DNA of 34,318 bases from Candidatus Pacearchaeota archaeon CG10_big_fil_rev_8_21_14_0_10_32_14 (GTDB lineage Archaea; Nanobdellota; Nanobdellia; Pacearchaeales; GW2011-AR1), in NCBI GenBank assembly GCA_002763085.1, contig PFCY01000075.1, positions 1-34,318 of the forward strand, given 5' to 3'. Shown here piece by piece: positions 5,483 to 33,989 of the stretch; within the stretch, counting starts at the first letter, position 1; each line of letters begins with the position of its first letter. Below the pieces are notes generated by a model that was not told where the DNA came from, did not search any database, and saw only the letters and a list, made by a program, of their open reading frames with translations. Made by a program: the position numbers and the translations under genes.

Positions 5483-5521
5483 TCTAATACAAATCTACTT
5501 TTAATTTTTAAAGATATATGT

Positions 5522-5710
5522 GGGCTTCATCCCATATTACAAAAATTAATTTATTTATAATAGAGATTTTGTTTGGTATTATGGTGGGACTCGATTTGGG
5601 CGAGCAACTTCGTGTTAAGGGGTAAGGTCTTGGTTGGTGGTCGAAGTTGTGTGTTTGGCAAGTTAATTACAAACAAAATCTCACAAAAAAATTTAATTTG
5701 GGATGAGGCC
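5522..5710. repeat. Long imperfect palindromic element with GC-rich core hairpin (repeat family copy 1)
   Basis: Outer arms ggcttcatccca (5523-5534) and tgggatgaggcc (5699-5710). Middle arms gagattttgtttg (5563-5575) and caaacaaaatctc (5670-5682). Core stem 5604-5612/5642-5650. A 30-mer at 5598-5627 matches 23029-23058 at 28/30 positions. Confidence 0.8.
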
Positions 5711-5762
5711 ATATATGTGCAAAAGTTTATAATCAATAAGTTATTATAAAACAAAAGAGAAA

Positions 5763-7704: not shown

Positions 7705-8586
7705 TTACAATTTCCAATGCGTATTGACATAACTGCCGAAAATCCTTAATGTTTCATTATATTCTCCATCAGGATCAAGATATTTTCTCAATCTATCTAC
7801 TGCATTCTTCACATTAGCATCATCTTGATGTCCAATTAGTTCAATATAAAAATGATAACCATCGGTCCCATCCGGACGAGATTGAATAGATTCTAAATTA
7901 ATATCATTTTCAGAAAATATTTCTAAACAACTTTTTAAAACTCCAGGTTTATCCTTTACTATTGGATGAATTGCAATAAATGTTTTATCTTCTCCACTCG
8001 AAGTTTGTATTTGTTTCCCAAGCACAATAAATCTAGTTTTATTATGCGGACAAATATTTTCGGCTATGATTTCAAGCCCATTTGATTCAAGCGCACTTTT
8101 CGACGCTATAACTCCTGCATCATAAATTTTTCCATATATTATATCTTCAATCGCTTGAGCGATACTACTCGTAGCAATAGTTTCAACTTTTGGATAAAAT
8201 TGACAAAGATATCTACTGCATTGTTCAAGAGCTTGATCTTTAGATAATATCTTTTCAATTGTTTTATGCTCTTTCAAAGCGCCTAAACAATGGACTATCT
8301 CCATACTCCTTTCGGCAATTATTTTAGTATTTGTATTCTCAAGCAAAGAATCAAGAGTTTCTCTTACTTCACCATTATAATAATTATCTAAAGATACAAC
8401 CCTGTAATCCAAAGATACCGTCTCAACGCCTATAACAACTTTTCTTATTGGAATTATTGGAAAATACTGAACTTCTCCTAAAATCTCTTTTGTCGCTTTC
8501 TCCGTAAACGTCTTAGACGATCCAAGATAGCCAACTTTCAAATTATTTAATAGAATATGTTCATTAAAAAAAGAAAAGACTACCAA
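7705..8586 (-). CDS. pheA: prephenate dehydratase (PDT + ACT domains)
   Basis: 293 aa. VGYLGSSKTFTEKA start, NKTRFIVLG, ACT region KPGVLKSCLEIFSENDINLESIQSRP. The start codon is uncertain (TTG in the ORF track). Confidence 0.8.
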   Translation of the reverse strand: MVVFSFFNEHILLNNLKVGYLGSSKTFTEKATKEILGEVQYFPIIPIRKVVIGVETVSLDYRVVSLDNYYNGEVRETLDSLLENTNTKIIAERSMEIVHCLGALKEHKTIEKILSKDQALEQCSRYLCQFYPKVETIATSSIAQAIEDIIYGKIYDAGVIASKSALESNGLEIIAENICPHNKTRFIVLGKQIQTSSGEDKTFIAIHPIVKDKPGVLKSCLEIFSENDINLESIQSRPDGTDGYHFYIELIGHQDDANVKNAVDRLRKYLDPDGEYNETLRIFGSYVNTHWKL

Positions 8587-8770
8587 CGCTTTTATTCGAC
8601 GTTTCCTCTACATGATTGTTGTTTATACTATGATAATTTTCTTCAATTAAATTAGATATTCTCGAATTATTTAAACGTTTGTATAATAATGACCTCTTGA
8701 AAAAGTGATAAGTTTTCCGTTTTTCCGGTTACAAGTTTTTGGCACGTTCAGCTTAGAAAAAAGTAGGAGA

Positions 8771-9855: not shown

Positions 9856-9944
9856 TTAAACCTCTTTTTCTTATGACAATGACGAAAAATAAGTATTTAA
9901 CTTTTGTGATTAAGATTAGGCTATCACATATTACAAAATTTAAT

Positions 9945-9989
9945 TTAATCGTTATACCCCGCAGCTCTGCTGCGACTGGGTCGTTGATT
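9945..9989 (+). repeat. 45-nt GC-rich hairpin repeat
   Basis: ttaatcgttataccccgcagctctgctgcgactgggtcgttgatt. The reverse complement of 16786-16829 matches at 43/45 positions. Stem cgcagc/gctgcg with loop tct. Confidence 0.8.
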
Positions 9990-10067
9990 TATTTAATATA
10001 GAGGTTTTGTTTGGTAATCGGGAGGTATTCAATTTGGATGAGATACTCCTAGCCCTAAATTGAGGGG

Positions 10068-10293
10068 TATCCTTACACAAATCTCTAAAGATCATAACAA
10101 AAATAATATTTGAATTTTATCTCTATTAAAAATTTTTGGATTAATTTTTCTGTACGATCAAATTCTGACGAAGTCAAATTTGAGAGCATTAATCTGCGAA
10201 GCAGCAAAATATTAATCAATTTTTCTTTTCCCCTCCCAGATTAGGGGGAATCGGATTCAAAAAACAAAAATTAAAAAGATTTTCAACAGAGTC
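10068..10293 (+). repeat. Intergenic mosaic repeat, copy B
   Basis: Same ordered blocks as 8771-9058. The preceding 9991-10040 resembles the left part of the 5551-5600 element (tagagRttttgtttggta). Confidence 0.8.
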
Positions 10294-10337: not shown

Positions 10338-11678
10338 ATGTCAAAATATGTCATGAAGTTTGGAGGAACCTCTCTCAAAGACGCCACTGCCATAGAAAGG
10401 GCGCACAAGATTGTAAAAGATTTTTACGGAAAAAATAATCCAGATCAGCTCATCATCGTTGTTTCTGCTGCAGGCAAACTTGGAGATGGACCATTAGAAG
10501 ACAAAGTCACAGATCTTCTTGAAAATATTTACAGAAACGAAAATCCGATCGCATCAAAAAACGAGGTCATAAGAAGATACAAAGATATTGCAGAGACTTT
10601 TGACGTTTTCTCTCCAGATGATTTGCTCCAAGAATTGAGCGAAGAGAACTCATCTGGATCAGACAAAGATTATTCAAGGATCGTTTCATATGGTGAAAGA
10701 CTTTCATCGCAGATTGTAAATGCGGTATTCTCAAAAGATTTAGAATCGATTGTTTTAGATTATGATCAATTTGGTATGGTAACATTAGGGGACAGAGACG
10801 CTGTTGCATCGTATGATTCCACCTATGAAATAGAAAGACAGCTGAAAAGAAAAGGTCCGATAGTGGTTCTTCCGGGATTTTTAGGATATAACTCTAATGG
10901 TGAAGTCACAACTTTAGGAAGAGATGGGAGCAATTATACTGCAACAAAGGTTGGGGAGGCGATTTTAACTCAAGGTGTTTTCATATTCAGCGATGAACCT
11001 GGAGTCCGAAGAGCAAATCCTAAAATAGTTTCAGACGCTGAAGTCCTTAAAGAGATGAGTTACAATGAAGCGATTGAATTTGCTGAACTCGGCGCAAAAA
11101 TAATTAATGCAAAATCCATAGAACCTGCAAAAAATCAAAACATACCGATTCATATTGTTGACGAAAGATACAAAGGAACAACGATATCCGGAAATGTCAG
11201 TCTTGAACACCAAGGTGCAAAGATAATCGCTTCTTCTCCCAACCACTCAATTTTAAGTATTCATTATGATACAGACAAACCTGGAGTCCTAGCAGACGTC
11301 GCAAAAAAATTCGCAGATTCTAAAATAAATATTGAATGTATAGCCGACGAAAGACATGCATTAAGTGTCGCCTACCTTTCATCATCTAAGGGCGACCTCT
11401 CAAAATTATTGAGACATTTTGATTCTAGTTACAAATTAAGTTTAGAAAACTCGTTTGCTAGGATATCTATAATCGGTGAGGAGATGCGAAATCAAGTCGG
11501 AGTTTTAGCAAAAATTGCACAATCATTCCAAGACGGCGGAATATCAATAGAGATGATAAGTCAGGCATTGACGCAACTGAACGTCACAACTTTTGTTCCT
11601 CAAGAATATGAACGGATCGCTGTTAAAAGATTATATGACGATTTGTTCAGGAATAATGGTAATTCATCAGATGAATAA
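10338..11678 (+). CDS. lysC: aspartate kinase
   Basis: 446 aa. VMKFGGTSL start, amino-acid kinase fold, two C-terminal ACT-like regions (KPGVLADVAKKFADSKINIE, QVGVLAKIAQSFQDGGISIEMISQ). Confidence 0.9.
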   Translation: MSKYVMKFGGTSLKDATAIERAHKIVKDFYGKNNPDQLIIVVSAAGKLGDGPLEDKVTDLLENIYRNENPIASKNEVIRRYKDIAETFDVFSPDDLLQELSEENSSGSDKDYSRIVSYGERLSSQIVNAVFSKDLESIVLDYDQFGMVTLGDRDAVASYDSTYEIERQLKRKGPIVVLPGFLGYNSNGEVTTLGRDGSNYTATKVGEAILTQGVFIFSDEPGVRRANPKIVSDAEVLKEMSYNEAIEFAELGAKIINAKSIEPAKNQNIPIHIVDERYKGTTISGNVSLEHQGAKIIASSPNHSILSIHYDTDKPGVLADVAKKFADSKINIECIADERHALSVAYLSSSKGDLSKLLRHFDSSYKLSLENSFARISIIGEEMRNQVGVLAKIAQSFQDGGISIEMISQALTQLNVTTFVPQEYERIAVKRLYDDLFRNNGNSSDE

Positions 11679-16727: not shown

Positions 16728-16785
16728 AACTAAAACAAATAAACGATGTTTTTAAATTTTATTGTATAGAAAAATAACATAAATA

Positions 16786-16829
16786 ATCAACGACCCAACC
16801 GCAGCAGAGCTGCGGGGTATAACGATTAA
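16786..16829 (-). repeat. 45-nt GC-rich hairpin repeat (inverted copy of 9945-9989)
   Basis: 43/45 identity after reverse complement. Stem ccgcagc/gctgcgg. Confidence 0.8.
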
Positions 16830-16840
16830 ATCAAATCTCA

Positions 16841-17492: not shown

Positions 17493-17698
17493 CGCCCCCA
17501 CCGGGATTCGAACCCGGGTCACGGCCGATCTTCTCAACCTTTCTTATAATTCGCGTTAGCGATCTCTTTAGGAGAGGTTTTGTCGAGCGACTTCACGAAG
17601 GACTTTTATTATCAATCCCAAGTGGGGTCGCAAGTAGGAGAACCTTAGGTTCTCCAGCGTTGAAAGGGCCGCATTCTTGGCCTCTAAACTATAGGGGC
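17493..17698 (-). tRNA. tRNA-Glu(UUC) with 133-nt intron (exons 17661-17698 and 17493-17527)
   Basis: Hand-folded. Acceptor GCCCCTA/TGGGGGC, D stem GTTT/GAAT, anticodon stem CGGCC/GGCCG, loop CTTTCA|C, variable TGAC, T arm CCGGG-TTCGAAT-CCCGG, discriminator G. No CCA encoded. The exact splice junction (37/38) is assumed, and a BHB motif was not verified. Confidence 0.8.
17584..17631 (+). repeat. GC-rich hairpin repeat family copy 3 (inside the tRNA-Glu intron)
   Basis: Left arm cgagcgacttcacgaag. Stem gcgacttc (17587-17594) pairs with ggggtcgc (17624-17631). Homologous to 17961-18012. Confidence 0.7.
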
Positions 17699-21697: not shown

Positions 21698-22810
21698 ATG
21701 AGAAAGAGTATTTCAAGAAGAAATTTTATCCTTACGGGGCTAGCAGGACTTGTTTCTACTTCTTTACCAAATTTAGTTTTGGCGTCAACTCATGAAAATG
21801 GTGCATTAAAAGATGTGGAAATTAGTTCGCAAGAATGGAATCCTCAAGATATAACAAGTTTAATCGAATTACCTTTTTATGTTGATGGCAAGGAGGAAAA
21901 TCAAGCTAAGGGAGAGAAATTTATAAGTACAGACATGTATCAAACGGCTTTGTGCTCTGATGGAGCATTTTCAAGAAACAGACGATGGGTAGTATCACCT
22001 CCTGTTAAAGAATTTTATGGAGATAAATTCAATGGGAGTTTTATATATGATACCGTTTCTGGAAGAGTTTTCAGCCTTGATATAGATCCAAGTTCTAAAG
22101 CATCTCCAAATATTGTCTGTAACGACGGTAGTTTTATAGTAAAATTAAGAGCTAATGAATTTATTTATGGCGACATCAAAAATGGAAGAAAAATAAAACT
22201 TCGAGGTAAATCTGAAAATAATCCGGATTCAATAAAACCTGCACTACTTCAATATTGTAATTTAAGTGACGATGGAAAAGTTATGGCGCTAAATCTAAAA
22301 GAAAGATCTCTCGTTCCACGCGAGTCATGGGAGCTGTTATATTCTCAAGGCAGCACTCGGGCAGTTTATTCTCCTCACTTTTATTTAGTTGATACTCAAT
22401 CATTTACTTTGATTGACCATAACCAGGGAAATTTACTTGTCATGGACGAAGATGCTTCAGTCTTGATCACAAGATCTCAAGGTCTTACGACAAGAGTGGA
22501 TCGAGATCAAGTAAAATCAACACTTATCGGAAACCGAAACGGAAATTATTTTCCAATGATTATAAGTCCAAACGGAAACTTTTGCGCCTATGTTCAAAGA
22601 GATAAATCACCATACTCAACAAGAATTGAGGTCAACTCTACAGGTGCTTTGTATGATATAGAGGGCTTCGTTCCCGATGTTCGAACTATCCAAGACGACG
22701 GAGGTTTTGAATCAATTCAGGGCAAATTCGATTACAAAGACGGAAATTACGTTTCAATTGACTCCTCAGAAAGAACTCACCAAAACATGAAAATCACAAA
22801 ATTAAGATAA
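21698..22810 (+). CDS. secreted protein with twin-arginine (Tat) signal
   Basis: 370 aa. SRRNFILTGLAGLVSTSLPNLVLAS fits the S-R-R-x-F-L Tat consensus. TATA tcttttaaagaaa lies about 24 nt upstream. Beta-rich, possibly propeller-like. Confidence 0.6.
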   Translation: MRKSISRRNFILTGLAGLVSTSLPNLVLASTHENGALKDVEISSQEWNPQDITSLIELPFYVDGKEENQAKGEKFISTDMYQTALCSDGAFSRNRRWVVSPPVKEFYGDKFNGSFIYDTVSGRVFSLDIDPSSKASPNIVCNDGSFIVKLRANEFIYGDIKNGRKIKLRGKSENNPDSIKPALLQYCNLSDDGKVMALNLKERSLVPRESWELLYSQGSTRAVYSPHFYLVDTQSFTLIDHNQGNLLVMDEDASVLITRSQGLTTRVDRDQVKSTLIGNRNGNYFPMIISPNGNFCAYVQRDKSPYSTRIEVNSTGALYDIEGFVPDVRTIQDDGGFESIQGKFDYKDGNYVSIDSSERTHQNMKITKLR

Positions 22811-24394
22811 TTTCTTGACCATATATTCACCATCTAATTCATAACCCATTTTTTTATAATACTCTCGAACTCCAACCCCCGAAATCACCGCAATTTTTTT
22901 GAATCCATTTTTAGAAGAAATTTCTTCCGCTTCTTTCATGAGTTGTTTTCCTAAACCTTGATGCTGAGCAACATTCTCATGTGAAATTGCGGTTTCATTT
23001 TTATTTTTCTTACTATCCGGGGGGGAGAGGGCGAGCGACTTCGTGGTAAGGGGTAAGGAAGTGGAGGTGTGCGAGGTCGCGAGTTGGGGGAAAGTGGAGG
23101 GTTTTGCGAAATCGTTTTTAATCTTTTCAAGTTCCAATGCCTGTCCATAAACATGAAGTTCTCTTACAATCGCGCAATCTTTTAATTCATGAATAAAATT
23201 TCCATTCTTCGACGGAAAACGCAATCGCAAAAGTCCATATAAAATATCTTTATCATCGACAATTTCAAGAAATAATTCTTTACCCCCGCTTGAATCATAT
23301 TCTATAATTTTCAATTTAATATTTTTTCCAAGAATTTTTTGAAAACCAACTTCTCTCATCCTTATTTCTCTCAAATGAATATTATCTTTTTTAAGATCGT
23401 CTTCAATATCTTTTCTCAAATCAAGTTTTTCTATGCCTTGAACGACAAGTTCTTTAGGGATCTCTCTCATTATCCTCATTATCCTGCAATACTCTGGAAT
23501 AAGTTTCATCATCTCTTCAACGACTTTCTTCGTCGTTTTTTCGTCATAAGGTTTGTATCCAGAAACTTTTGCAATTTTTTCTAATGGTGCTCCGGCAACA
23601 ATTTGACAAGGATAAATCTTCAATTGATCGGGTCTGAATCTCTCATCATCAAAAATCATCTTGAATAATTTTATATCTTTTTTTGGATCGCTTCCAGGAA
23701 GACCAGGCATAATATGATACCCCACTTTAAATCCAGCATCTTTTAATCGCTTTGATGCTTCAATAACATCTTGTAAAGTATGTCCTCGATTAATATTCTT
23801 GTAGATTTCATTATCAGGCATTTGAATTCCGATTTCAACTCTCGTCGTCCCGAAACGCAACATCTGTTTTATTTCTTCTTCACTGCAATTATCCGGCCGA
23901 TTTTCTATACAAAGTGCAACAACTCTATGTTGAGCTTTTTCATTAAGTTTTTTCGCCGCTTCAAGTGTTTTAGATCTGACACGTTTTTCAGTGTCTCGCG
24001 ATGCGTATGCGTAATCGCCATTTAAAACGTCATAAGTAGATTTGATCACGTATTCTTGATACTCTTTTTCATACTGCAAAAATGTTCCGCCAAGAATTAT
24101 AACTTCAATCTTATCCGTCGGATGATTCATTTTTACAAGTGCATCAAGTCGAGCAGAAACTTGTTTTACAATATCATAATCAAAAGCCATGGCTCGCATT
24201 ATCGCTGGTGATTTATCTGTATAACTCTGTGGAGTTGTTTCGCCCCCTGGACAATAAACACACGTTCCATGATTGCATTTTCGAGGTTTGAGTACAACAG
24301 TCAAAACTGTAACTCCCGCTTTGCTTCTAACAGGTTTCTTGACGGTCCCTTCTTTGACTTCTTTCTGATAAGTTTGTTGATTTGCGATTTCCAT
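22802..24394 (-). CDS. elp3: Elp3 (radical SAM + GNAT tRNA U34 modification enzyme homolog) carrying a repeat-derived in-frame insertion
   Basis: 530 aa. Cys cluster CNHGTCVYCPGG, VRELHVYGQ, GNAT QHQGLGKQLMKEAEEI. An anomalous S/T/P-rich segment lies between YG and QHQG. Confidence 0.9.
   Translation of the reverse strand: MEIANQQTYQKEVKEGTVKKPVRSKAGVTVLTVVLKPRKCNHGTCVYCPGGETTPQSYTDKSPAIMRAMAFDYDIVKQVSARLDALVKMNHPTDKIEVIILGGTFLQYEKEYQEYVIKSTYDVLNGDYAYASRDTEKRVRSKTLEAAKKLNEKAQHRVVALCIENRPDNCSEEEIKQMLRFGTTRVEIGIQMPDNEIYKNINRGHTLQDVIEASKRLKDAGFKVGYHIMPGLPGSDPKKDIKLFKMIFDDERFRPDQLKIYPCQIVAGAPLEKIAKVSGYKPYDEKTTKKVVEEMMKLIPEYCRIMRIMREIPKELVVQGIEKLDLRKDIEDDLKKDNIHLREIRMREVGFQKILGKNIKLKIIEYDSSGGKELFLEIVDDKDILYGLLRLRFPSKNGNFIHELKDCAIVRELHVYGQALELEKIKNDFAKPSTFPQLATSHTSTSLPLTTKSLALSPPDSKKNKNETAISHENVAQHQGLGKQLMKEAEEISSKNGFKKIAVISGVGVREYYKKMGYELDGEYMVKKLS
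23018..23107 (+). repeat. GC-rich hairpin repeat family copy 2, inserted in frame in elp3 (30 codons)
   Basis: 23029-23058 matches 5598-5627 at 28/30 positions. Stem gcgacttcg (23035-23043) pairs with cgaggtcgc (23072-23080). Translated on the minus strand as AKPSTFPQLATSHTSTSLPLTTKSLALSPP. Confidence 0.8.
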
Positions 24395-24439: not shown

Positions 24440-24569
24440 GCTTTGTTGAAAAAATCAAAATAAATGAGCAAGTTCGTTTATTCAATTCACTCTTTCGGGA
24501 GGGCGTGGGAGGGGGAAGGTGGTCGGATTTACGAACTTGCTAGAAATAGAAAAAGATTTTCAACAAAGC
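24440..24569 (+). mobile_element. MITE-like palindromic element (repeat family copy 5)
   Basis: Terminal inverted repeats gctttgttgaaaaaatc (24440-24456) and gattttcaacaaagc (24555-24569). Perfect 11-bp inner stem agcaagttcgt (24467-24477) with acgaacttgct (24531-24541). G-rich loop. Confidence 0.65.
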
Positions 24570-31813: not shown

Positions 31814-31863
31814 CTCATCGTCCCGTCGAACATAAAGCCATGACGGATGTCTGGCTTGAAGCT
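31814..31863 (+). repeat. Cassette-junction repeat R1
   Basis: 31824-31863 is identical (40/40) to 33266-33305. ctcatcgtcccg (31814-31825) recurs at 33891-33902. Hairpin aagcca/tggctt. Confidence 0.85.
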
Positions 31864-31914
31864 CCATTAATAAGCTCACGACTTTGGAGTAAGCATGATA
31901 TTTAATCTCACCAA

Positions 31915-33265: not shown

Positions 33266-33329
33266 CGTCGAACATAAAGCCATGACGGATGTCTGGCTTG
33301 AAGCTGCAGAAATGAGCGAGCTTGCGAGC
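33266..33329 (+). repeat. Cassette-junction repeat R2
   Basis: 40-mer identical to R1. The 19-mer aatgagcgagcttgcgagc (33311-33329) is identical to 33946-33964. Confidence 0.85.
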
Positions 33330-33876: not shown

Positions 33877-33965
33877 AAATTCGTTTCAATCTCATCGTCC
33901 CGCCGAGCGTAGAAATCTGCCGCAAGGCGATTTTGAAGCGGCATGAATGAGCGAGCTTGCGAGCG
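33877..33965 (+). repeat. Cassette-junction repeat R3 (divergent)
   Basis: Shares ctcatcgtcccg with R1 and the 19-mer with R2. Internal perfect hairpin tgccgc/gcggca. Confidence 0.65.
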
Positions 33966-33989
33966 TATTTCTTCTAATAAATAAAATCT

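Follow-up and report, generated by a model that had tools for sequence, protein, structure and literature searches.

How did the gene for the tRNA-modifying enzyme Elp3 come to stay open through a block of G+C-rich repeat DNA, and is that block translated, spliced out of the mRNA, or retained for some role of its own? The question arises in contig PFCY01000075.1 of Candidatus Pacearchaeota archaeon CG10_big_fil_rev_8_21_14_0_10_32_14, which was analyzed as one stretch of 34,318 nucleotides, referred to here as the window. The G+C content of the window is 32% overall. The gene and the block are located as follows.

22802..24394, minus strand: elp3, encoding 530 aa with radical-SAM and KAT/GNAT domains, for tRNA U34 modification (ORF, Pfam, PDB and AlphaFold).
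23018..23107, minus strand: 90-nt G+C-rich block, encoding AKPSTFPQLATSHTSTSLPLTTKSLALSPP, residues 430-459 (translation and composition).

The original prediction was that elp3 remains open through a copy of a hairpin repeat. The frame is indeed open throughout its 530 codons, and the block translates into exactly the peptide that had been quoted. The block contains 63.3% G+C with a GC skew of +0.68, while the adjacent 90-nt bins contain 34% and 31%. Pfam assigns Radical_SAM (PF04055), Radical_SAM_C (PF16199) and GNAT to the protein, whose PDB matches are full-length Elp3 structures (E ~1e-116 to 3e-116). The CX4CX2C Fe-S motif is kept, its C40, C45 and C48 being invariant in 120 homologs. 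GNAT motif A (Q/RxxGxG/A), the acetyl-CoA pyrophosphate-binding element, is intact and in frame 3' of the insert; the QHxGxG columns (Q477, H478, G480, G482) are invariant in the same 120 homologs, and every other column 3' of the insert that is invariant among them is also kept. Over residues 476-530, the dN/dS relative to the closest ortholog, on contig L001, is about 0.2. Judged by its sequence, elp3 appears to be a gene still under constraint.

The motifs ELHVYG and QHQGLG are separated by 59 aa in this protein; in 116 of 124 close homologs the spacing is 11-16 aa, in agreement with the original figure of about 15 residues. The unmatched residues (423-473) fall between positions 396 and 402 of DmcElp3, within its blocking loop (390-406), and the alignment of the C-terminal domain covers DmcElp3 402-458. 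The insertion lies in the acetyl-CoA blocking loop, within the KAT/GNAT domain, and not at the junction of the radical-SAM and GNAT domains, where it had been placed. According to a published proposal, this loop makes acetyl-CoA binding dependent on tRNA binding; when it was replaced by GSGSG, the Elp3 fold was kept, and MinElp3 carrying the GSGSG loop retained both tRNA-induced acetyl-CoA hydrolysis and acetyl-CoA affinity (PMC6367351). Being naturally variable and experimentally replaceable, the blocking loop is a tolerated site. In the AlphaFold model of the 530-aa protein (pTM 0.85; TM 0.90-0.94 against solved Elp3 structures), pLDDT is below 50 over nearly all of residues 420-475 and in the 90s on either side, so that the insert is placed between well-modelled elements, on the surface, where the fold can accommodate it. 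The model predicts a disordered surface loop, with the Elp3 fold intact elsewhere. The insert peptide is of low complexity, besides being predicted to be disordered. The 39 added aa lie in a loop with a supposed gating role in acetyl-CoA access, and some impairment of the enzyme is possible.

Elp3 loops vary in length among homologs and the peptide is of low complexity, so the segment might instead be an ancestral or independently expanded linker, or even an assembly chimera. However, it is missing from the closest ortholog (P0002, on the syntenic contig L001, with 79% nucleotide identity) and from the other 123 homologs examined; the net length difference from this ortholog is 132 nt. The ancestral linker had been foreseen as a segment shared with relatives that lack the repeat family; contig L001 has neither the segment nor, by nhmmer, any copy of the hairpin module. 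The identical 530-aa protein and insert DNA are present on eight contigs from several samples and assemblers (including JGI samples 3300004210 and 3300004208 and ENA assemblies ERZ27293400 and ERZ27293414), and the insert is therefore not an assembly artefact. Since the segment also belongs to a nucleotide repeat family (E=8e-15), with homology reaching into a MITE arm, the linker or chimera reading is already effectively refuted, and we give it almost no weight. As part of the explanation that we favor as a whole, the insertion probably postdates the split of the window's lineage from that of L001. In our own in silico reconstruction, removal of 22992-23108 yields ...EKIKNDFAISHENVAQH..., a loop of 20 aa that lies within the natural range; the expected empty-site allele reads ...KNDFAISHENVAQH..., and the protein database contains no such empty-site variant. 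All the recovered copies of the insert-bearing gene are identical and thus provide no post-insertion divergence for testing selection on the insert.

The repeat to which the block belongs is represented in the window by a reference copy, and its hairpin by two arms within elp3.

5523..5710, plus strand: MITE1 reference copy, 188 bp, with terminal inverted repeats (TIRs) GGCTTCATCCCATATTAC... and a hairpin module at 5597-5665.
23035..23045, plus strand: 5' arm of the module hairpin in elp3, GCGACTTCGTG (folding and pair counts).
23070..23080, plus strand: 3' arm of the same hairpin, TGCGAGGTCGC (folding and pair counts).

Positions 23029-23058 match 5598-5627 at 28 of 30 nucleotides. This match, on which the original prediction relied, is real and recurs in independent assemblies; none with three or fewer mismatches appeared in 100 dinucleotide-preserving shuffles. 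The module family has about 30 copies in related metagenome contigs and the core GGGCGAGCGACTTCGTG-GTAAGGGGTAAG-N-GGTG-NN-CGAAGTCGCGAGT, with a stem of 9-11 bp. The elp3 copy fits this core and matches the module profile at 23028-23091 (nhmmer E=8.1e-15). Across 13 distinct copies, 86.8% of the stem cells are paired, compared with 31-47% when the partners are slid. A 9-bp duplication, ATATATGTG, flanks the MITE1 reference copy at 5514-5522 and 5711-5719, and its hairpin folds with z=-5.8. The metagenome Ga0210057 holds at least 18 MITE1 copies of 243 bp that are ~97% identical, and every one of them is flanked by a 9-bp duplication of its own; MITE1 has no ORF. A second TIR sequence besides GGCTTCATCCCATATTAC of MITE1 is GTATCTCCGATAC. 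No consistent target-site duplication (TSD) was found for the MITE2 copies elsewhere. Besides lying in spacers on its own, the module occurs in both of these MITE backbones, which are unrelated to each other, and it forms tandem arrays of 1-3, a pattern which suggests that it spreads or duplicates independently. Rfam searches of the window, at the gathering threshold and at E<=1, and of four related loci returned only tRNA and left the module and the MITEs unmatched, and module scans gave no match in 185,579 GTDB representative genomes or in viral contigs. A protein search with the module peptides in four frames retrieved nothing at E<=10, P0001 included, which is uninformative because a low-complexity correction is probable. 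With no match in Rfam or among the representative genomes, the family is undescribed; its comparison with the Rickettsia palindromic elements (RPEs) is one of layout.

The inserted DNA in elp3 and its edges were delimited with the second MITE family.

22992..23103, plus strand: inserted DNA with MITE2 homology, consisting of an A+T-rich left arm of ~26 nt, a G run, the hairpin module and a G-rich linker.
22987..22991, plus strand: left copy of the 5-nt direct repeat TTGCG, abutting the MITE2-homologous segment.
23104..23108, plus strand: right copy of TTGCG, at the other edge of that segment.

MITE2 queries (L019, L021, L010 and L014, in single-sequence nhmmer searches) match from 22992/22995 to 23085/23103 with E down to 2e-8. 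The homology begins at MITE2 position 24-27, past the TIR, and stops in the linker; the arm match is collinear, at 18 of 20 nucleotides, and only 9 of 2979 natural 57-mers match as well. The 90-nt block originally described is real, but by this homology the inserted DNA is longer and includes A+T-rich MITE-arm sequence. Neither MITE1 nor MITE2 TIRs are found at or near the elp3 insert. For the TTGCG at both edges, target duplication and microhomology are both conceivable; by our own estimate its chance probability is ~0.09, which is not significant. A target duplication was also considered for the A-rich direct repeats AAGATTAAAAACGAT and AAGAAAAATAAAAATGAA and was dropped, the right-hand A-rich stretch being homologous to the MITE2 arm. 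The G-rich strand of the insert is the plus strand, and the sense strand of elp3 is the C-rich one; two of the three frames are open on the C-rich strand, whereas the G-rich strand has TAA stops in two of three.

We consider it probable that elp3 carries a translated and tolerated in-frame insertion of a non-autonomous repeat fragment, comparable to those of RPEs. The comparison was already made in the original prediction, and it is sustained by the family match, the absence of the segment from all 124 homologs and the predicted disorder of the loop. A MITE2-like fragment of 112 nt, or 117 nt with one flanking TTGCG, would have entered the gene, bringing part of the A+T-rich left arm, the G run, one hairpin module of ~60 nt and the G-rich linker, and no TIRs. 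With neither a TIR nor a convincing TSD, entry may have occurred by illegitimate or templated repair, or a full MITE insertion may have decayed. Its length is divisible by three and its C-rich strand is the sense strand, an orientation presumably set by selection because of the distribution of stops on the two strands. The blocking loop, between the strand ...VRELHVYG and the helix QHQGLGK..., would have had ~20 residues before the insertion and has 59 with it. Transcription and translation of the insert are most likely, the product being an S/T/P-rich, disordered loop (KPSTFPQLATSHTSTSLPLTTKSLALSPPDSKKNKNETA) tolerated by the enzyme, and we infer that Elp3 with the insert is still active. Peptides within the insert include SLALSPPDSK and PSTFPQLATSHTSTSLPLTTK. 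The open frame is in itself weak evidence of translation, two-thirds of the C-rich-strand frames being open anyway.

The same insertion could instead have crippled Elp3, in which case the gene would be a recently struck, impaired copy that has not yet suffered further damage. The proposed role of the loop as an acetyl-CoA gate dependent on tRNA binding would fit such an outcome, the identity of all the recovered copies allows the event to be very recent, and the lineage appears to be reduced and A+T-rich, a setting in which gene loss would be common. Nevertheless, the loop is dispensable in vitro (PMC6367351), the invariant catalytic and binding columns are all intact, and the predicted fold is unperturbed. 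The allele is found in several samples and has no empty-site counterpart in the protein database, and an insertion that is stop-free and preserves the frame suggests passage through selection. We regard a crippled enzyme as unlikely.

An alternative raised together with the original prediction is that the insert never reaches the protein: the tRNA-splicing endonuclease would cut it out of the elp3 mRNA as a bulge-helix-bulge (BHB) intron, leaving a mature loop of normal size. The reason to consider it lies in another gene of the same genome.

17528..17660, minus strand: 133-nt intron of tRNA-Glu(UUC), of the endonuclease type, with a degenerate module, in the gene at 17493-17698 (Rfam and ortholog comparison).

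Rfam recognizes this tRNA with 41 bits and a 135-nt insert; ARAGORN reported no tRNA in the window and missed the intron-containing gene. The ortholog on L001 is intron-less and has identical exons. The module in the intron has the stem GCGAC/GTCGC between CTCCTACTTGCGAC and GAAGTCGCTCGaCAAAA and the same orientation as in elp3, being transcribed in the C-rich sense. In gapped local alignments, the intron scores better against the elp3 insert and against L012a than 2000 of 2000 and 1000 of 1000 shuffles, and it matches the MITE2 junction at 16 of 17 positions; a strict local alignment with the elp3 insert finds only an 11-mer, equalled in 16 of 1000 shuffles. What had been called a sister copy does share its stem and flanks with the elp3 copy but is too diverged for nhmmer (E>1); it is only a degenerate relative.

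For a BHB motif, we required two 3-nt bulges, a 4-bp helix between them and at least one stable flanking helix; the scanner recovers the BHB of the tRNA-Glu gene, with a 7-bp flanking helix and the 133-nt intron. Over the elp3 block, relaxed candidates number 103, not enriched over the 91.6 +/- 18 obtained with shuffled flanks. One BHB-like candidate in the loop would remove a 144-nt intron (23123..22980) in frame and leave the plausible loop ...QALELENENVAQH..., but it has a single exon-side pair and three A-U intron-side pairs, and its energy is +4.3 kcal/mol, compared with -11.3 for the tRNA-Glu junction under the same scoring. The sense strand over the insert folds no better than its shuffles (z=-0.2 and -0.9), with its ends unpaired, and the insert keeps the frame and is free of stops, neither of which an intron requires. 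The flanks hold no credible BHB fold, and splicing of the elp3 mRNA is very unlikely; equally improbable is the wider proposition that one mobile hairpin family supplied both the newly gained tRNA-Glu(UUC) intron and a spliceable insert in the Elp3 mRNA. If excision did take place, it would represent an endonuclease intron of a protein gene outside Crenarchaeota and a direct view of archaeal tRNA intron gain from mobile DNA. In that reading, Elp3 would modify the very tRNA that bears the intron. BHB introns in archaeal protein genes are known from cbf5 of Crenarchaeota, and transposition of tRNA introns from Thermoproteales. The elp3 case resembles them in having an extra segment in a conserved gene and a related one in the intron of a tRNA gene of that genome, and differs in that the junction motif was not found and the frame is preserved.

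A nucleic-acid function is also conceivable, in which the hairpin would be retained in elp3 as, for example, an antisense RNA or a regulatory structure of the G-rich strand and would not be a passenger. The family does keep its stem, with one compensatory change from G-C to A-U and about five G-U wobble columns that pair only on the G-rich strand, and in both MITE families this strand follows a TATA-like box. A second hairpin with a G-rich loop lies just upstream of elp3.

24467..24541, plus strand: possible diverged module with an 11-bp stem AGCAAGTTCGT/ACGAACTTGCT and a G-rich loop, 74-146 nt upstream of the elp3 start.

This upstream hairpin folds with z=-4.4 and is weakly similar to the elp3 block (equalled in none of 300 shuffles); the module profile finds no nhmmer match in it, and it is possibly a further diverged copy. 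However, the TATA-like part of the MITE arm is missing from the elp3 copy, and transcription of the tRNA intron reads its module in the opposite, C-rich sense. The relatedness of the copies inflates the covariation: only two pairs show changes in both partners, a result matched by 293 of 500 shuffles. Rfam contains no matching family. A retained function of this kind seems to us highly improbable.

In-frame repeat insertion is known from Rickettsia and other bacteria, and the elp3 case is an archaeal example. Like RPEs, it involves a hairpin-capable repeat of ~100-150 nt lying in frame in a conserved housekeeping gene, where it contributes a peptide at a fold-compatible position; in each case the genome is A+T-rich and reduced, and there are copies in non-coding DNA too. 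It differs in its archaeal host, in its low-complexity peptide with predicted disorder, and in being a fragment (arm, module and linker) instead of a whole element. Roughly half of the copies are intragenic in some RPE families (Ogata et al. 2000, summarised in PMC10969869), whereas the elp3 copy is the only one in a real ORF among the ~30 from the window and 24 further loci, a small sample chosen with a 23-nt pattern. With a single copy in a real gene, there is no RPE-like pattern of repeated in-frame insertions. Intragenic in-frame insertions of prokaryotic MITEs (ERIC, BOX, Correia and cyanobacterial MITEs) have been called 'not unusual' (PMC10969869). The reference copy at 5523-5710 is like these in its TIRs, 9-bp TSD, near-identical copies and lack of an ORF; the elp3 insert is unlike them, having neither TIRs nor a clear TSD, and what is shared is a hairpin module from the interior of the elements.

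The mobile G+C-rich clusters of yeast mitochondrial DNA, which include an optional in-frame cluster in var1, are palindromic, mostly intergenic, nested, and occasionally translated inside coding sequence. The module family is similarly scattered through a very A+T-rich genome, in another domain of life and with no sequence relationship. Its architecture, with one hairpin common to two MITE backbones, tandem arrays and a tRNA intron, is unusual and may inform the spread of G+C-rich hairpins through A+T-rich genomes and the origin of new archaeal tRNA introns. The absence of the event from a syntenic sister genome makes elp3 a clean, dated example, in which small mobile repeats would be able to remodel a core, universally conserved archaeal enzyme as RPEs do in Rickettsia. 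The blocking loop is the proposed link between tRNA binding and the access of acetyl-CoA, and its natural 59-residue variant therefore also offers a ready test of its importance. Extra loop sequence is present in other lineages as well: P0004 has 15 additional aa encoded by G+C-rich DNA, which other loci match over 12 nt only (E=0.69), and P0073, P0081 and others have 10 additional aa.

The 530-aa product of the open reading frame listed here is identified as Elp3 by its Pfam domains (Radical_SAM, Radical_SAM_C and GNAT), by its structure matches (Dehalococcoides Elp3, 5l7j, 3e-116; Methanocaldococcus infernus Elp3; eukaryotic Elp3) and by the Fe-S cysteines and the QHxGxG motif, which are invariant in 120 homologs.

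22802..24394, minus strand: elp3, open reading frame of 530 aa

As the original prediction held, this frame stays open through a G+C-rich 90-nt block (23018-23107), whose in-frame translation is AKPSTFPQLATSHTSTSLPLTTKSLALSPP. The G+C content of the block is 63.3% and its GC skew +0.68, while the adjoining 90-nt bins have 34% and 31% and the whole window 32%. The predicted 28/30 identity between the 30-mer 23029-23058 and the repeat copy at 5598-5627 was reproduced, and 0 of 100 shuffled controls gave any match with three or fewer mismatches. The block is not an assembly artefact, since the identical protein, with the insert DNA, recurs on 8 contigs of several samples and assemblies (JGI 3300004210 and 3300004208; ENA ERZ27293400 and ERZ27293414).

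The closest relative of this protein is P0002 (475 aa), encoded on the NCBI contig L001, which is syntenic with the window. The two elp3 genes share 79% nucleotide identity, the segment is missing from that of L001 (132 nt net, equal to 44 codons), and a module profile search found no repeat copies on L001. The spacing between HVYG and QHxGxG, put beforehand at about 15 residues, is 11-16 aa in 116 of 124 close homologs; six have 18-25 aa, the homolog P0004 has 30 aa, and 59 aa is seen only in the window. An ancestral linker would be expected in relatives free of the repeat; L001 has neither segment nor repeat and the spacing is unique among the 124, which effectively rules out a linker: the segment is an insertion.

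The insertion site had been placed at the radical-SAM/GNAT junction, a location that the alignment to the bacterial DmcElp3 contradicts. This alignment is split into two pieces (query 19-422 with chain 2-396, query 474-529 with chain 402-458), so that about 51 residues of the window's Elp3 stand opposite 5 residues of the bacterial enzyme. The gap falls within the acetyl-CoA blocking loop (DmcElp3 390-406, MinElp3 466-486; PMC6367351), and thus the site is inside the KAT domain, where strand beta (..VRELHVYG) precedes it and the motif-A helix follows. Lin et al. swapped this loop for GSGSG with the fold kept, and MinElp3 with the GSGSG loop retained tRNA-induced acetyl-CoA hydrolysis and acetyl-CoA affinity (PMC6367351). 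The loop is a permissive site, a point underlined by independent extra sequence in other lineages: in the same loop, P0004 has a net 45 nt (15 aa) more than the homolog P0003, within a 66-nt stretch (contig L006, 2271-2336) of 55% G+C in a genome of 33%. Elp3 inserts were compared in alignment A2, columns 440-500. Inserts of 30-60 aa occupy a different KAT-domain loop, after LRLRIF, in P0027, P0045, P0062, P0081 and P0092, and the rSAM domains of the window's protein (P0001), P0003, P0004 and P0073 have a 12-aa insert in common, DYAYASRDTEKRV.

When metagenomes were scanned with a 23-nt pattern taken from the common core of the repeat, 22 matches in 18 stretches came up, nearly all in sample Ga0210057. 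The majority are copies of MITE1, a 243-bp element with terminal inverted repeats (TIRs) GGCTTCATCCCATATTAC... and 9-bp target duplications that differ copy by copy, of which Ga0210057 holds at least 18 copies at ~97% identity. The ~60-nt hairpin module is also carried by a second, unrelated backbone, MITE2 (TIR GTATCTCCGATAC, 194-451 bp), whose length range is caused by the number of tandem modules, from 1 to 3, with G-rich linkers between them.

5523-5710 (5514-5719 with target duplications): MITE1 reference copy, a complete MITE of 188 bp and a deletion variant of the 243-bp element; TIRs GGCTTCATCCCATATTAC and GGCCTCATCCCAAATTAA, 9-bp duplication ATATATGTG on both sides
Contig L019, 4047-4188, minus strand: MITE2 copy
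Contig L014, 5582-6032: MITE2 copy
Contig L010, 2698-2921: MITE2 copy
Contig L021, 3712-3905: MITE2 copy

Free module copies occur in spacers of contigs L012 and L024, and among the ~30 module copies seen only that of elp3 lies in a genuine ORF; a profile built from six modules detects it with E=8.1e-15. No Rfam family matches the module, and scans of 185,579 representative genomes and of IMG/VR did not find it. This is a new repeat family, unusual in being built of modules and nested. Across 13 distinct copies, 86.8% of the cells of the 14-pair stem are paired, compared with 31-47% for slid partners. Stem changes comprise one compensatory pair (G-C to A-U) and five columns with one-sided changes, all of them G-U on the G-rich strand, which hints, short of proof since the copies are related, that this is the folding strand. 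The MITE1 copy of the window has a TATA-like box, TTTATTTATAATA, upstream of its G-rich hairpin. The MITE2 arrays each end in a conserved GAAA-tetraloop hairpin, CTTCGGCGAAAGCCGAA, of which the free L024 copy has a compensatory variant, TTCGTCTGAAAGACGAA, and a nested insertion adds to the length of the L014 copy.

Queries from the left half of MITE2 align to the window from 22992/22995 through 23085/23103, with E down to 2e-8, starting at MITE2 position 24-27, past the TIR and the TATA-like box, and stopping in the linker before the second module. The match of the A+T-rich arm (TTTCATTTTTATTTTTCTTA versus TTTAATTTTTATTTTTCCTA) runs collinear with the module, and its score is reached by only 9 of 2979 natural 57-mers. 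Because of this collinear homology, the proposed 90-nt insert stands as a repeat copy but not in its extent: the inserted DNA consists of arm, G run, module and linker, about 112 nt, which accounts for the tail ...PPDSKKNKNET. TTGCG is found at both ends (22987-22991 and 23104-23108; chance probability ~0.09 by our estimate), and deleting one TTGCG together with the segment leaves ...EKIKNDFAISHENVAQHQGLG, a 20-residue loop inside the natural range. No TIRs were found in the insert, which is therefore not a complete MITE, and the other MITE2 copies have no consistent target duplication. The segment may derive from a MITE2-like copy through illegitimate or templated repair, or may be what is left of a full insertion after trimming.

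The alternative that the element is removed from the mRNA as a bulge-helix-bulge (BHB) intron, as in crenarchaeal cbf5, was addressed with our own scanner for the archaeal motif, which recovers the junction of the tRNA-Glu gene of the window (7-bp exon helix, 4-bp central helix, two 3-nt bulges, 133-nt intron).

17493-17698, minus strand: tRNA-Glu(UUC) gene, Rfam tRNA 41 bits
17528-17660, minus strand: its 133-nt intron, at the canonical position 37/38

In the elp3 mRNA, 103 relaxed candidates enclose the block, versus 91.6 +/- 18 with shuffled flanks. Only one is both in the variable loop and in frame (23123..22980, 144 nt); it has a single pair on the exon side and three A-U pairs, and its energy is +4.3 kcal/mol versus -11.3 for the tRNA junction. 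Folding of the sense strand across the insert is no stronger than that of shuffled sequence (z=-0.2, -0.9), with its ends unpaired, and on these grounds a BHB intron is improbable. The open frame alone is weak evidence of translation: two of three frames are open on the C-rich strand and one of three on the G-rich strand (TAA in two frames), which explains the orientation seen. An AlphaFold model built with 120 homologs has a pTM of 0.85, with pLDDT below 50 over nearly all of residues 420-475 but in the 90s to either side, and its superposition on solved Elp3 structures gives a target-normalised TM of 0.90-0.94, in line with the surface loop for which modelling had been suggested, the rest of the fold being kept. 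For the part of the gene downstream of the insert, comparison with L001 gives a dN/dS of ~0.2. Most likely, the insert is translated as a tolerated loop, predicted to be disordered.

In-frame MITE fusions have been reviewed as 'not unusual', with Rickettsia palindromic elements as the extreme case (PMC10969869). The likeness to these elements drawn originally holds in function, as the elp3 insert does the same as they and other intragenic MITEs do; the elp3 copy itself is not classed as one of them, since many in-frame copies are their hallmark, whereas here only 1 of ~30 is in an ORF. It differs from a complete MITE in lacking TIRs and from an archaeal intron in failing the BHB test. The phenomenon is of a known kind, in a new family.

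The tRNA-Glu intron, which ARAGORN misses along with its gene, folds well (z=-3.8). In the L001 ortholog (8563-8635) the exons are identical and the intron is absent, so a recent gain or loss is indicated. The intron had been described as a sister copy of the repeat; it is related, but only as a degenerate copy that the module profile search does not detect. Under strict scoring, intron and insert share only an 11-mer (16 of 1000 shuffles are as good), while gap-tolerant alignments, joining CTCCTACTTGCGAC... with ...GAAGTCGCTCGaC...CCTCTCC, beat all shuffles, and GAAGTCGCTCGACAAAA in the intron agrees with the module-arm junction of MITE2 in 16 of 17 positions. We take the intron to hold a degenerate module with its loop replaced, oriented in the transcript as it is in elp3; this lineage would therefore have gained two segments, 132-133 nt long, that are related to one repeat family. 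Paired gains in elp3 and in a tRNA modified by Elp3 are intriguing and may be coincidence.

A further strong hairpin lies in the divergent spacer between elp3 and the DUF2238 gene.

24467-24541, plus strand: hairpin with an 11-bp stem (AGCAAGTTCGT/ACGAACTTGCT) and a G-rich loop, z=-4.4, 74-146 nt upstream of the elp3 start

Two compensatory changes aside, its arms resemble those of the module, which makes it a possible diverged copy. Elsewhere, an inverted repeat pair (9938-9989 and 16785-16836; 52 nt, 94% complementary, 6.8 kb apart) carries a different small G+C-rich hairpin, CGCAGC-TCT-GCTGCG, and its first copy is nested in a MITE1-like left arm (9923-10050), which suggests that several G+C-rich hairpin families nest in A+T-rich DNA here. 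A conserved non-coding block at 9984-10240, upstream of the ORF 10338-11678 (GGATGAGATnCTCCTnGCCCTAAAnnGnGGGGTATCC ... TTTGGATTAATTTTT ... GAGCATTAATCTGCGAAGC), is common to Ga0210057 contigs (L012 4930-5130, L024 about 1180-1230, L016 1347-1495), where hairpin modules flank it. No Rfam family matches this block, which may be a structured RNA or a leader that has gone unannotated. Towards the right end of the window, a relatively G+C-rich direct repeat family, unrelated to the hairpin module, has three copies of 45-52 nt with 62-92% identity (31824-31875, 33266-33317 and 33901-33977), spaced 1442 and 635 nt apart.
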